Positions 1 to 4,277 of a stretch of DNA of 4,277 nucleotides are shown one piece after another. This stretch comes from a virus (Duplodnaviria > Heunggongvirae > Uroviricota > Caudoviricetes). Positions within the stretch are counted from its first letter, which is position 1, and each line of letters opens with the position of its first letter. Position numbers and translations under genes: made by a program. Location: IMG/VR virus record IMGVR_UViG_2585427792_000010, positions 1 to 4,277 of that record. One strand, written 5' to 3'. The notes beneath the pieces are model-generated. The model had not been told where the DNA came from, did no database searches, and saw only the letters and a list, made by a program, of their open reading frames with translations.

Positions 1-25
1 ACCTCGGTTTACAGGAAACGGTAAA
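1..25. repeat. Left inverted repeat / crossover site of the invertible segment, truncated by the window edge
   Basis: Positions 1-25 (acctcggtttacaggaaacggtaaa) are the exact reverse complement of 3055-3079; the first mismatch is at position 26. Position 1-17 corresponds to the inner half-site plus centre of the 26-bp site at 3063-3088. Confidence 0.7.
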
Positions 26-962
26 TCAGGCTTCTGGCGCATTACAGAAAAACCAGAACGGCGCAGATATTCCGGGAAAAGATACCTTCACCAAAAATAT
101 TGGGGCCTGCCGCGCATATAGCGCATGGCTGAATATTGGTGGCGATAGTCAGGTCTGGACAACCGCGCAATTTATTTCGTGGCTGGAGAGTCAGGGAGCA
201 TTTAACCATCCTTACTGGATGTGCAAAGGCTCATGGACTTATGCAAATAATAAGGTCATTACAGATACAGGTTGCGGAAATATTTGTCTTGCAGGTGCTG
301 TGGTGGAAGTTATTGGCACTCGCGGCGCAATGACCATACGCGTTACCACGCCGAGCACGTCCAGCGGTGGCGGAATTACTAACGCTCAATTCACTTATAT
401 TAATCATGGTGATGCTTATGCTCCTGGCTGGCGACGAGACTACAACACGAAAAATCAACAACCTGCATTTGCTTTAGGGCAAACAGGAAGCACTGTCGGA
501 AATGATAAAGCTGTTGGCTGGAACTGGAATAGCGGGGTCTATAACGCAAACATTGGTGGCGCATCGACATTAATCCTCCACTTCAATATGAATACGGGGA
601 GCTGCCCTGCTGTACAGTTCCGCGTGAATTACAGGAACGGCGGTATTTTTTATCGTTCAGCGCGTGATGGTTATGGATTTGAGGCTGACTGGTCAGAGTT
701 TTACACCACGACCCGCAAACCCTCTGCGAGAGATGTTGGTGCATACACGCAGGCAGAATGTAACTCAAGGTTTATTACAGGTATTCGCCTTGGCGGTCTG
801 TCATCTGTTCAGACATGGAATGGCCCCGGCTGGTCTGACAGGTCAGGTTATGTCGTTACGGGTTCAGTTAACGGAAACCGTGATGAATTAATTGATACAA
901 CTCAGGCAAGGCCAATTCAGTATTGCATTAATGGGACGTGGTATAACGCGGGGAGTATTTAA
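3..962 (+). CDS. Start-less alternative tail-fibre C-terminal (receptor-binding) cassette (S'v / Hv'-like); silent in this orientation, expressed only after inversion fuses it to the constant part of the fibre gene
   Basis: My own translation shows the frame of track ORF 219..962 is open from position 3 with no stop. It begins LGLQETVN, identical to residues 391-398 of the minus-strand fibre. It ends ...RPIQYCINGTWYNAGSI, resembling the fibre C-terminus ...RPIQKYINGTWYNVAQV. No convincing SD precedes the Met at 219. Confidence 0.8.
   Translation, partial: LGLQETVNQASGALQKNQNGADIPGKDTFTKNIGACRAYSAWLNIGGDSQVWTTAQFISWLESQGAFNHPYWMCKGSWTYANNKVITDTGCGNICLAGAVVEVIGTRGAMTIRVTTPSTSSGGGITNAQFTYINHGDAYAPGWRRDYNTKNQQPAFALGQTGSTVGNDKAVGWNWNSGVYNANIGGASTLILHFNMNTGSCPAVQFRVNYRNGGIFYRSARDGYGFEADWSEFYTTTRKPSARDVGAYTQAECNSRFITGIRLGGLSSVQTWNGPGWSDRSGYVVTGSVNGNRDELIDTTQARPIQYCINGTWYNAGSI
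950..955 (+). promoter_or_regulatory. Shine-Dalgarno-like GGGGAG for the plus-strand chaperone gene, embedded in the last codons of the alternative fibre cassette
   Basis: GGGGAG at 950-955, 9 nt upstream of the ATG at 965 (12 nt from the ATG at 968). Confidence 0.4.
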
Positions 963-964
963 CG

Positions 965-1498
965 ATGATGCACTTAAAAAACATTACTGCTGGCAACCCT
1001 AAAACAAAAGAGCAATACCAGCTAACAAAGCAATTTAACATCAAATGGCTTTATTCAGATGATGGAAAAAACTGGTATGAGGAACAAAAGAATTTCCAGC
1101 CAGACACTTTGAAAATGGTCTATGACCATAACGGCGTTATTATTTGTATTGAAAAGGATGTTTCAGCAATTAATCCAGAAGGCGCAAGCGTCGTTGAATT
1201 ACCTGATATTACAGCAAATCGCCGGGCTGATATTTCGGGTAAATGGATGTTCAAAGATGGCGTAGTGATAAAGCGAACTTATACCGAGGAAGAACAGAGG
1301 CAGCAGGCAGAGAATGAAAAACAAAGCCTGTTGCAACTTGTCAGGGATAAAACCCAGCTATGGGACTCACAGCTACGGCTGGGCATCATTTCCGACGAGA
1401 ATAAACAAAAATTAACAGAGTGGATGCTCTTTGCGCAGAAAGTCGAATCGACAGACACTTCCAGCCTGCCAGTAACGTTTCCCGAACAACCAGAATGA
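965..1498 (+). CDS. Alternative tail fibre assembly chaperone (U'/Tfa'-like paralog), partner of the silent alternative fibre tip
   Basis: 177-aa [27 protein letters not shown].... Roughly 70% identical by eye to the minus-strand chaperone over the first ~110 aa, then a divergent C-terminal ~60 aa. Starts 2 nt after the stop of the upstream cassette (960-962). GGGGAG at 950-955 is a plausible SD. The homologous start may be the second ATG at 968. Confidence 0.87.
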   Translation: MMHLKNITAGNPKTKEQYQLTKQFNIKWLYSDDGKNWYEEQKNFQPDTLKMVYDHNGVIICIEKDVSAINPEGASVVELPDITANRRADISGKWMFKDGVVIKRTYTEEEQRQQAENEKQSLLQLVRDKTQLWDSQLRLGIISDENKQKLTEWMLFAQKVESTDTSSLPVTFPEQPE

Positions 1499-1501
1499 GA
1501 G

Positions 1502-1529
1502 AAGGCCCGCAATCGGGCCTTAATTTTTA
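1502..1529. terminator. Putative intrinsic terminator hairpin between the convergent chaperone genes
   Basis: Perfect 8-bp GC-rich stem (aaggcccg 1502-1509 and cgggcctt 1514-1521) with a 4-nt loop (caat), followed on the plus strand by aattttta. It lies in the 28-bp gap between the stops of the two convergent genes (1498 and 1527). The U-tract is weaker for the minus-strand transcript. Confidence 0.5.
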
Positions 1530-2054
1530 CTCTGGTTTTTGTGGCCATTCAGGCTTTGCCGTATCCACACGGCTGACCAGAACGCTGTAGCGTTCCCATG
1601 ACTCCAGTCGTGCGCGCTCCTCATCCGTCGCCATATTCAGCCTGACAGCGCGTTCCAGCGGCTGGATGACTGATTCAGCTTCGGAAAGCAATGCGGCCTT
1701 TTGTGATTCGGCTTGTTGTTGCTGTTCGTCTGCCGTATAAATCCGTTTAACTACAGCTCCATCCTTAAACATCCACTTTCCTGAATCATCAGCGCGGCGA
1801 TTGGCTGTAATATCGGGAACCTCAACGACGCTAAAACCTTCAGGGTTAAGCGTGGATGCATCTTTGGTGATGGCGACAATAATATTATTTTCATCGTAAA
1901 CAATCTTTATTGTATCTGGTTGAAAGTTTTTCACTTCCTCATACCAGTTTTTACCGTCTTCGGACCATAACCAGATAACATCAAAATTCTTTGTTAGCTG
2001 ATATTGTTCTTTCGTTTTAGGATTACCAGACTTAATATTTTTTAAATGCTGCAT
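1527..2054 (-). CDS. G: Tail fibre assembly chaperone (P2 gpG / Mu U / lambda Tfa family), partner of the currently expressed fibre tip
   Basis: 175-aa ORF starting [24 protein letters not shown]..., which I recall as matching P2 G. ATG at 2054-2052 lies 3 nt after the fibre stop (2058-2060). An AGGTG Shine-Dalgarno (2061-2065, minus strand) sits 6 nt upstream of the ATG, inside the 3' end of the fibre gene. Stop TAA at 1527-1529. Confidence 0.88.
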
Positions 2055-2057
2055 AAT

Positions 2058-4277
2058 TTACACCTGTGCTACGTTATACCATGTGCCATTGATGTATTTT
2101 TGTATTGGTCTGAAGATGGCTTCATCATCGCCATCTACTTCACCAATGATTCTTAATCCGGTAATTGCGTGTCCGGCTTTTTCATAACGACCACCACGCG
2201 CCATCAATTGAACAACACGTGTGCCAAGTCGGACATCTCTCACATAGCGTGAGTCAAAATTGCCATAATTTCCGGGAATAATTTGCGCACCGCAAAGCCA
2301 GTTGCCATTGTTGTCCATGTACGCCTGACCATCGGTGCCATTGGCTGTCCTTGAATTATTAATCATGTAAAAACCAAACTGGTAGTTACCAAGTCCACCG
2401 ACAAAAAATTTGCGTTCTGCATGGTCTTGTCTTAACAAAGCCTGCGCAGAACTTGTTGATACTGCGTTTCTACCAAAAATGACATTCTGGTTTCGCATAT
2501 CAATCCATGAGGTTGAGCCACTATTAATAGCAAACCTGTTTGCATACACCCAGGCGTTAGTTGTTATATCTCCTGTAACATCCAGACCATGCCCCATAGT
2601 TATGCGGCCAGTTCTGAGATTAAGCGTAAAGGGACGTAGTGGCCCTATATCACCATTTTCCCCCTCATTCTCTCGTGTAGGGATGATATGCAGGCATTCT
2701 TCAGAACGGCGAAAAATGGCACCAAAAGATGAATTAAATATCCTCAGTGCATTGACTGTCGATATTTTTACTTCACTGCTGAAAAGGGCTTTAACAAGAA
2801 CAGACAAAGCACCCCATTTAAGATTCATCAGGTCTTTTGTTGTGGTGCTTTGTTTGCTTCTCCATTTGAAATATTCATTGCCGTTGTCGCCTGTTTCAAA
2901 CCACATGTATGAATCAGTGTCGCTGTCGGCATCATTTTTAAATCCAATCTTTGCCCAGTCAGTATTTCGAATCCAGGCAAGGATTGAGTCGTTTTCAAAA
3001 GTAAGCCCACCGGATAAGGTATCGCCTGTCTTTTGAACGGCGTTACCAGCCCTGTTTACCGTTTCCTGTAAACCGAGGTATTCGATAACGGCGGCAACGG
3101 TCGATTTCGCAAGAATATCCCGCCCGACTTTTGTCAGGGTTGCCAGGCTGGCGACATCATTCCCCGTAAAATACGGAAACCTGTCTGCCGCAGTAGCAAG
3201 CCCGGCCAGCGCCGTCAGGGTGGCATCTTTCGGTTGCTTACCCGCAAGCGCGTTAGTCATGGTGGTCGCAAAATTCGGGTCGTTGCCCAGCGCCGCCGCT
3301 AACTCGTTCAGCGTATTCAGTGCGTCAGGCGACGAGTCTACAAGGGCGGCAATCGCGGCCATCACATAAGCCGTACTTGCGATCTGAGTATTATTAGTAC
3401 CTTTTGGCGCAGTTGGCGTTGTTGGCGTTCCGGTCAGTGCAGGACTATTTAAGGGCGCTTTCTTGTTCGTTTCATCCATTACCGCCTTAACCGCTTTCGA
3501 TGTCGCGGCCAGTGTTTCAGACGTGCTGTTGGTGGCACTACTGAGCTGGACTATCCCTTTTTGTGCCGTCGTGGCGTCCTGAGCGGTATATTTTGCGTTA
3601 GCAAGGTCATACGCGGCCTTTACTGCTTTCGGCGTTGCAGCCTGCGTTTCAGACGTGCTGTTGGTGGCGCTACTGAGCTGGACAAGGCCTTTTCGCGTCG
3701 TGCTGGCATCCTGCGCAGTATATTTACCGTTAGCAAGATCATACGCGGCCTTTACTGCTTTCGGCGTTGCAGCCTGCGTTTCAGACACGCTGTTAGTGGC
3801 GCTACTGAGTTGAACAAAGCCTTTTGCGGTCAGCGAGGCGTCCGGGTGACGTCGTGACTGTTCATGCTCTTTCAGTTTGTCATCCACGTAATCCACTGTG
3901 GCCATCACCATGGTGTTATCCACGGTAAGCGCCACGGTGGCAGTGCTGGATACGGTCAGAATGGTGCGAAATGTTTGTGCACGACCGGACCCTTCGGCAA
4001 CGGCTGGCTTGTAACTTTCGGCAGTATTTCCCACCGCGATTAAATCGCCGTGCTCATCAAATACACCAATTTCCCGGATCCAGAATCCGCCCGTTTCAGG
4101 AGGAATAACCAGCTCCGCAATAATGCGGTTCTGATGTGTTGCGTCCAGGATGACGCGATTAACAGTATGTCGCCACACCTCATGCACCAGACGGGTCTGC
4201 TTACTGTTTGGTGTGGGCAACGTGCCGCCACCGTCGCCCACGGCCATATGAGTCAGGCGGACAGGCTTACCATCTGG
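2058..4277 (-). CDS. H: Phage tail fibre protein, P2 gpH-like; 5' end runs off the window. Constant N-terminal shaft about 3077-4277, currently joined variable receptor-binding C-terminus 2058-3076
   Basis: 729-aa ORF on the track (2058..4247). My translation of 4248-4277 in the same frame (PDGKPVRLTH) has no stop, so the Met at 4247 is internal. From memory, the N-terminal region (MAVGDGGG..., IAELVIPPE..GGFW, ESYKPA.AEGSGR) and the C-terminal end (GNFDSRYV.DVRLGTRVVQLMARGGRYEKAGH.ITGLRIIGEVDGDDEAIFRPIQKYINGTWYNVAQV) match P2 tail fibre H. Contains 44-aa tandem repeats with the QLSSATNSTSET.AATPKAVK motif typical of phage fibres. Stop TAA at 2058-2060. Confidence 0.9.
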   Translation of the reverse strand, partial: PDGKPVRLTHMAVGDGGGTLPTPNSKQTRLVHEVWRHTVNRVILDATHQNRIIAELVIPPETGGFWIREIGVFDEHGDLIAVGNTAESYKPAVAEGSGRAQTFRTILTVSSTATVALTVDNTMVMATVDYVDDKLKEHEQSRRHPDASLTAKGFVQLSSATNSVSETQAATPKAVKAAYDLANGKYTAQDASTTRKGLVQLSSATNSTSETQAATPKAVKAAYDLANAKYTAQDATTAQKGIVQLSSATNSTSETLAATSKAVKAVMDETNKKAPLNSPALTGTPTTPTAPKGTNNTQIASTAYVMAAIAALVDSSPDALNTLNELAAALGNDPNFATTMTNALAGKQPKDATLTALAGLATAADRFPYFTGNDVASLATLTKVGRDILAKSTVAAVIEYLGLQETVNRAGNAVQKTGDTLSGGLTFENDSILAWIRNTDWAKIGFKNDADSDTDSYMWFETGDNGNEYFKWRSKQSTTTKDLMNLKWGALSVLVKALFSSEVKISTVNALRIFNSSFGAIFRRSEECLHIIPTRENEGENGDIGPLRPFTLNLRTGRITMGHGLDVTGDITTNAWVYANRFAINSGSTSWIDMRNQNVIFGRNAVSTSSAQALLRQDHAERKFFVGGLGNYQFGFYMINNSRTANGTDGQAYMDNNGNWLCGAQIIPGNYGNFDSRYVRDVRLGTRVVQLMARGGRYEKAGHAITGLRIIGEVDGDDEAIFRPIQKYINGTWYNVAQV
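2061..2065 (-). promoter_or_regulatory. Shine-Dalgarno (AGGTG) for the minus-strand chaperone gene, embedded in the last codons of the fibre gene (translational coupling)
   Basis: The minus-strand sequence upstream of the ATG at 2054 reads agcacAGGTGtaaattATG, giving a 6-nt spacer. Confidence 0.5.
3055..3079. repeat. Right inverted repeat, inside the fibre coding sequence at the constant/variable junction
   Basis: Exact 25-bp reverse-complement match to window positions 1-25. Encodes LGLQETVN of the fibre protein. Confidence 0.7.
3063..3088. other. Candidate 26-bp serine-invertase crossover site (gix/cix/pix/hix-like): TTCCTGTAAACC-GA-GGTATTCGATAA
   Basis: Imperfect palindrome of two 12-bp half-sites (TTCCTGTAAACC, and TTATCGAATACC on the other strand) around a central GA dinucleotide. 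The left half and centre are the part duplicated at the window start. From memory it closely resembles the Mu gix site; this was not verified by alignment. Confidence 0.6.
3477..3845 (-). repeat. In-frame tandem repeat, 132-bp period (44 aa), about 2.7 copies, in the constant shaft of the fibre gene
   Basis: The motif gtttcagacgtgctgttggtggc recurs at 3514, 3646 and 3778 (with variants), a spacing of exactly 132 bp. The protein shows KGFVQLSSATNSVSETQAATPKAVKAAYDLANGKYTAQDASTTR, then KGLVQLSSATNSTSETQAATPKAVKAAYDLANAKYTAQDATTAQ, then KGIVQLSSATNSTSETLAATSKAVKAV.... Confidence 0.85.

Follow-up and report, generated by a model that had tools for sequence, protein, structure and literature searches.

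Organization of the locus

The window, i.e. the whole stretch of 4,277 nucleotides of viral DNA analyzed here (positions 1 to 4,277 of the IMG/VR record IMGVR_UViG_2585427792_000010), contains two convergent genes for chaperones of the Tfa family, each of which is preceded on its own strand by the coding region of a phage fibre tip. At the left edge lies a crossover site of the gix/cix type (1..17), which is represented by its inner half and the central TC dinucleotide (window 4-5), with the outer half situated beyond the window edge. From this site an open frame runs along the plus strand as a silent alternative fibre tip cassette of the S'v type (3..962); it is without a start of its own, is open from base 3 at the crossover site to a TAA at 960-962, and its product begins with LGLQETVN, as does the corresponding part of the expressed fibre. 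The chaperone gene U' (965..1498, plus strand) starts 2 nt past the S'v stop codon. The stop codon of U' is separated from that of the second chaperone gene, U (1527..2054, minus strand), by a 28-nt spacer (1499-1526), within which lies a GC-rich, terminator-like hairpin of 8 bp (1502..1521, plus strand) followed by a T-run on the plus strand only. U in turn starts 3 nt past the stop codon of the presently expressed fibre, whose variable C-terminal part, Sv (2058..3075, minus strand), is contained in the invertible segment described below. The coordinates given for the two chaperone ORFs in an earlier note on this DNA, namely 965-1498 on the plus strand and 2054-1527 on the minus strand, are exact, and the products are 177 and 175 aa long, respectively. 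Beyond Sv a complete 26-bp right crossover site (TTCCTGTAAACCGAGGTATTCGATAA; 3063..3088) matches the boundary of the Mu G segment inside gene S, and from there the constant N-terminal part of the fibre (3076..4277, minus strand) extends to the right window edge.

The long minus-strand fibre ORF displays, in Pfam comparisons, a P2-type collar, three Phage_fiber_2 repeats, a Gp34_trimer domain and a Phage_tail_fib match. Its frame is open to base 4277; as the P88 homologue has 765 aa and the Pfam collar match begins at profile position 32, the ATG listed at 4247 probably lies within the reading frame. We also observed that the constant fibre shaft includes three tandem repeats of 132 nt (44 aa) at 3484-3879 on the minus strand, which are 75-83% identical to each other and correspond to the Phage_fiber_2 repeats. 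The alignment of the S'v cassette with residues 170-488 of the Mu S/S' fibre structure (PDB 8JU3_A; E = 1.7e-219) runs almost residue for residue, and Sv matches residues 170-503 of 5YVQ_A (E = 1.2e-139). Homology between S'v and Sv is confined to their last ~70 aa, which are 38% identical and end in RPIQ..INGTWYN; at the DNA level this shared tip end is discernible as a 40-nt inverted repeat of 78% identity (909-948 versus 2072-2111). A tip end common to both cassettes is probably what enables related chaperones to act on either tip. Over its last 45 aa Sv departs from the end of P2 H at a single position. From Mu S it departs in the middle (68% identity over 340 aa), and the region 2058-3080 is a mosaic relative to Mu S, with near-identical flanks around a divergent middle block of ~100 aa and an end as in P2 H.

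An invertible segment in a P2-like prophage

The entire window is 96.3% identical in DNA to phage P88, a P2-like Xuanwuvirus, and positions 39-3028 share 96.2% identity with the P7 C segment; D108 matches ~63% of the window at 95.3% identity. Both tips and both chaperones are flanked by an inverted repeat (1-49 versus 3031-3079). The left 26-bp site is complete in P88 (TTATCTAAAACCTCGGTTTACAGGAA), and an equivalent site occurs at the annotated boundary of the Mu G segment (gix). Both crossover sites match those of Mu; they are in inverted orientation and one of them is inside the fibre gene. Both tip cassettes begin with LGLQETVN at the crossover site and diverge in sequence after it. In P88 a DNA invertase adjoins, to the left, what is the first base of the window, placing the enzyme outside the window itself, and a serine invertase is also found in related loci. 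The genes S, U, U', S' and gin/cin are annotated with the same layout in Mu and P7. Furthermore, both orientations are present among the relatives of the window: the arm of one chaperone protein (P0014) is joined to the full fibre in L175, L177 and L178, and lies beside the invertase in L173, L174 and L176. The contention of the earlier note that inversion switches tip and chaperone together is accordingly supported by the anatomy of the locus, by the annotation of Mu and P7 and by the occurrence of the two orientations in relatives. With the constant fibre N-terminus outside the segment, inversion would attach one of two C-terminal tip cassettes to it, each followed after 2-3 nt by its own Tfa chaperone, i.e. 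Sv-U in the present orientation and S'v-U' once the segment is inverted.

Taken together, the window very probably represents an invertible segment of the Gin/Cin/Pin type in a P2-like (P88-like) prophage, whose two chaperones are orthologues of Mu U (and also of P2 G) and of Mu U', and whose C-terminal chaperone divergence is real and has a basis other than matching of the tips. The U/U' pair is already known from Mu, from P1/P7 and, as G, from P2, and the arrangement is the textbook host-range switch of Mu and P1; to this extent the window adds no new biology. Among the closest systems, the Mu G segment (S-U / S'-U', with Gin) is like the window in layout, in its 26-bp crossover sites and in both chaperones (97% each). 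Unlike in Mu, however, the invariant fibre portion and the genes around the segment are P2-like. The C segment of P1/P7, inverted by Cin, has a central convergent chaperone pair as in the window, but in P7 this segment, at about 4 kb, exceeds that of the window in length, its crossover sites lie further upstream in S and its gene names are swapped relative to Mu. The annotation of P7 splits the counterpart of the window U' (L001:3427-3960) into two ORFs, Ua and Ub, implying a frameshift or stop in that copy. P88 resembles the window and has an adjacent invertase. In contrast, the H/G region of P2 is non-invertible: H is succeeded by one chaperone gene, G, and then by a terminator and fun(Z), and the second arm is absent from the P2 region that was retrieved. 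Among the related loci the same central chaperone pair recurs in P2-like, Mu-like, P1-like and lambdoid contexts. In three of the lambdoid loci (L180, L181, L184) the convergent pair lies behind a lambda-type side tail fibre with a phage_tail_N domain, and the invertase is a fragment of 60 aa, suggesting that the switch is probably frozen there.

The two chaperones differ mainly in one domain

Both chaperones belong to the Tfa family, as the earlier note had surmised, with PF02413 (Caudo_TAP) matching residues 40-177 of U' at 124.2 bits and residues 40-175 of U at 128.1 bits, against a cut-off of 22.1. The plus-strand copy and Mu U' share 97% identity; for the minus-strand copy the values are 97% against Mu U (gp50; PDB 5YVQ chain B; E = 3.5e-110) and 95% against P2 G, and the match to each Mu protein extends over the full length. 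U' and 5YVQ_B are 58% identical. Between themselves the two window proteins share 102 of 177 residues (58%; BLASTP, E = 7e-77), including in both the motifs quoted in the earlier note. These identities are distributed very unequally. Pairwise alignment yields 81/110 identical residues (73.6%) for positions 1-110 and 21/65 (32%) from position 111 to the end, and with a sliding frame of 20 aa identity stays at 50-90% up to residue 110, is 60% at 101-120 and then drops to 22-40%. An even spread of the divergence is thereby ruled out, and the division into a similar N-terminal and a divergent C-terminal part, as first noticed, holds. The same split is seen between Mu U and Mu U' (71% in the N-terminal and 33% in the C-terminal part). 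At the DNA level codons 1-110 of U and U' are 70% identical, and their differences, which number 20 at the first, 14 at the second and 65 at the third codon position, bear out the reported divergence at wobble positions; the DNA of the C-terminal parts is ~37% identical, which is close to no similarity. By the NG86 method dN between U and U' is 0.18 in the N-terminal and 0.95 in the C-terminal part, and dS is saturated in both, so that the two domains cannot be dated separately.

An AlphaFold2 model of U' shows a helical hairpin at residues 108-139 and 144-162 with a pLDDT of about 90, alongside an N-terminal domain of low confidence (pLDDT 30-67). Given this confident placement of the hairpin, the divergent part of the protein can be equated with one structural domain, and the step in identity sits just before the predicted domain boundary at which the hairpin starts. 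For U a build of two domains rests on its 97% identity to 5YVQ_B. By analogy with Mu U and Pam3 gp25, the C-terminal hairpin (about residues 108-162) would serve in oligomerization, and trimerization of the fibre would thereby start at its C-terminus.

Linkage of tips and chaperones

The ATG of each chaperone lies directly downstream of a tip ORF on the same strand (gap of 2 nt in the plus arm and 3 nt in the minus arm), and motifs resembling Shine-Dalgarno sequences (GGAG and AGGTG) occur within the final codons of the tip ORFs. We collected every chaperone along with whichever ORF terminates directly before it in 190 sequences, comprising the window and 189 loci; this yielded 330 pairs, in 327 of which the gap is 1-3 nt. 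Judging from this spacing and these motifs, translational coupling of tip and chaperone, as claimed in the earlier note, is plausible.

The earlier note had further proposed that the wobble divergence limits homologous recombination between the paralogs. RecA-dependent exchange in E. coli needs roughly 23-27 bp, and the longest in-register exact match between U and U' over codons 1-110 is 18 nt; as this falls short of the required length, limited recombination fits the window, with the effect on recombination itself being an inferred one. The proposal does not extend to such segments in general, because locus L168 carries an inverted repeat of 572 nt and 96% identity that includes parts of both chaperone genes, and because chimeras of U and U' exist.

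In chimeras of this kind a U-type N-terminal domain (86-94% identity) is joined to a U'-type C-terminal domain (97-100%), as seen in the protein clusters P0016, P0018, P0050, P0063, P0082, P0095 and P0102, as well as in L168, L169 and L185, with the switch point inside a conserved stretch of 19 residues. In L168 (L168:3786-5305; E. coli CP098219.1, a P2-like prophage) the 572-nt repeat comprises both tip ends and codons 1 to ~97 of both chaperones, such that the tip ends are identical and the N-terminal domains near-identical. The 376 nt between the repeat arms consist of the two dissimilar C-terminal halves, a U/U' pair, and the 28-nt spacer. From its sequence, this looks like a recent homogenization of the two arms that halted at the C-terminal domains. 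We assume that such chimeric chaperones are functional, as they are encoded by intact ORFs in intact-looking prophages.

The C-terminal domain is probably not the counterpart of the tip

According to passages in three papers, all citing North et al. 2019 (PMC9608196, PMC7291167, PMC7882524), it is the N-terminal domain of Tfa proteins that varies and binds the fibre, trimerization being driven by a conserved helical domain at the C-terminus, and in the Mu complex 5YVQ the resolved part is the N-terminal domain alone, sitting on the tip. The full-length Pam3 gp24-gp25 complex (PDB 7YPX) divides the roles likewise: the N-terminal beta domain of a two-domain chaperone grips the fibre, and trimerization falls to the helical domain at the C-terminus (PMC9608196). 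This complex, a distant relative, is the sole full-length structural picture of the chaperone mechanism; it differs from Mu in that the Pam3 chaperone is released and absent from virions, whereas Mu U stays bound. The published domain roles and the Pam3 complex together indicate a family-wide trend opposite to the assumption of the earlier note, which had assigned tip specificity to the C-terminal ~60 residues as fitting the family.

We compared chaperone type with tip in 140 distinct tip-chaperone pairs from the window and the first 165 loci (IMG/VR). Among these, U-type chaperones occur behind tips whose bodies are 16-100% identical to the window Sv and which have in common the terminal motif RP[IV]QK.I[ND]G.WYNV, and 56 of the 59 U'-type chaperones in the IMG/VR sample occur behind tips ending in ...YCINGTWYNAGSI. 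Yet the U' C-terminal domain, at 97-100% identity, is found behind four classes of tip end. In L168 and L185 it is fused to a U-type N-terminal domain and serves a tip that matches the window Sv in every one of its last 45 aa; in L169 the same kind of chimera stands behind another, unrelated tip end; in L178 and L104 the domain follows an Sv-like end on an S'-like body, and in L156 an Sv-like body with another end. In L171 a U'-like N-terminal domain combined with a third C-terminal type follows an S'v tip, and in L168 both C-terminal types stand behind one and the same tip end (last 45 aa identical). Adjusted mutual information with the class of tip end amounts to 0.77 for the N-terminal class and 0.54 for the C-terminal class, in a similarity-biased and partly chimera-enriched sample of physically linked features; in the same biased sample the identity of tip ends correlates with that of N-terminal domains at 0.77 within one C-terminal class, and with that of C-terminal domains at 0.25 within one N-terminal class. 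The bias arises from the sampling, as the best-80 lists from IMG/VR were mostly composed of near-identical copies and diversity was taken from protein clusters and their contigs; a profile search of genome contigs with the U/U' alignment recovered 5 loci, too few for a species-wide sample. We accordingly treat the association statistics as indications, and it is the existence of the combinations that matters.

It is against these combinations that the model of the earlier note, in which the divergent C-terminal domain matches a chaperone to its own tip and the shared N-terminal domain is generic, has to be judged. This model would be in agreement with the concentration of the divergence in the C-terminal domain, with the high conservation of that domain within each type and its great dissimilarity between types, and with the strong association of C-terminal type and terminal tip motif in the commonest loci. 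Of 5426 complete E. coli genomes, 645 contain the S'v-end and U' junction and 25 the junction of an Sv-like end with the U' C-terminal domain (as in L178); the canonical pairing being so much commoner, a C-terminal preference for certain tips is conceivable, and the domain may have a quantitative preference for some of them. As an explanation of the divergence we nonetheless hold the model to be very unlikely: it is contradicted by the placement of the N-terminal domain on the tip in the solved Mu complex, as described in the passages cited above, by the pairing of the U' C-terminal domain with four classes of tip end and of one tip end with both C-terminal types in L168, and by the closer agreement of the tip end with the N-terminal than with the C-terminal domain. 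It also conflicts with an experiment of Sakai et al. in 2019, in which Mu gp50 and gp51 were reportedly interchangeable in co-expression, each solubilizing both fibres. The natural mosaics instead suggest, at the level of sequence comparison, that tip end and N-terminal domain move jointly and that the C-terminal domain is interchangeable. This is of some practical value for the engineering of chimeric fibres, as it bears on which chaperone domain must travel with the tip.

The dissimilar pair at the segment centre

The C-terminal divergence is asymmetric, with the U type being mainstream and the U' type narrow. The U-type C-terminal domain occurs in 301 phage records, among them P2 G (88%), 186, lambda-like phages, APSE-1 and Ralstonia phages. 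The U' type occurs in 57 phage records, of which the annotated ones at an identity of at least 88% are Mu-, P1/P7- and P88-type phages; below that, identity is at most 61%. Of the 120 clusters listed as homologous to U', most have a C-terminal domain 95-100% identical to that of U'; their N-terminal domains, 70-83% identical to U', fall into 17 clusters at 90% identity. Within the U' type dN/dS is 0.03 in the C-terminal and 0.10 in the N-terminal domain. In the reading we favour, U has retained the canonical C-terminal domain of the family and U' possesses a distinct and strongly constrained variant found almost only in invertible segments, which travels with the segment centre, tip ends and N-terminal domains being swapped on either side of it. 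A notion that the DNA of the central core is itself unusually conserved was rejected, since its median identity to the window is 93%, versus 95% for the N-terminal coding part of the U' arm.

Across 76 distinct convergent pairs, identity between the two C-terminal domains never leaves the range of 9-34%, whatever the tips, and 73 of the 76 combine U with U'; across the same 76 pairs N-terminal identity ranges over 43-95% and tip-end identity over 29-100%. The spacer from stop to stop is 28 nt in 72 of them. The simplest account of this ever-present heterotypic C-terminal pair at the segment centre would be descent, with the centre being inherited as a block and conversion tracts unable to cross it for want of homology on the far side. 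Another possibility is that a dissimilar pair of U-type and U'-type C-terminal domains is an obligatory design feature of convergent pairs in invertible segments, independent of the tips and kept by palindrome instability or by a need for orthogonal trimerization modules, two alternatives that are non-exclusive. We regard such an obligatory pairing as unlikely; were it true, U' would be a specialized, strongly constrained C-terminal variant that owes its existence to the invertible architecture.

One form of constraint would act on the DNA, as two alike 3' halves set 28 nt apart would form a long near-palindrome, requiring the C-terminal coding halves to stay dissimilar, and the gradient of similarity, which is nil near the centre and high towards the outside, would then reflect palindrome avoidance and not protein function. 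The heterotypic centre in 76 of 76 pairs with the 28-nt spacer in 72, the ~37% DNA identity of the U and U' C-terminal halves, and the termination of the homogenized arms of L168 (572 nt, 96%) at 188 nt from the centre on each side all point in this direction. However, the pairs share descent and so are not 76 independent trials, heterotypy could persist without selection when a conversion tract over the C-terminal half finds no homology on the far side, and the dN/dS of 0.03 in the U' C-terminal domain is left unexplained; on balance palindrome avoidance appears decidedly improbable. Another form of constraint would act on the proteins, the C-terminal domains being orthogonal oligomerization modules, or differing in host-surface binding, and thus keeping apart two assembly lines or host ranges when both orientations share a cell. 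Strong purifying selection within each C-terminal type coupled with the large distance between types would be consistent with this, as would the proposed role of the domain in trimerization (PMC9608196) and the retention of Mu Tfa on the virion with a suggested binding of LPS (PMC8174754, PMC10579305). But only one arm is transcribed per genome copy, and the canonical U/G-type C-terminal domain is common to many co-resident prophages, which argues against such insulation being general; we give it little probability, on a par with the matching of tips. Relaxed constraint, under which the last third of the silent copy would just be in decay, could appeal to the plus arm being unexpressed in the present orientation. 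It has next to no probability, in view of the 95-100% conservation of the U' C-terminal domain across the majority of the 120 listed clusters with 17 N-terminal variants, its dN/dS of 0.03, the intact ORF and the existence of loci in both orientations, and we reject decay of the silent copy on the basis of this conservation within the type.
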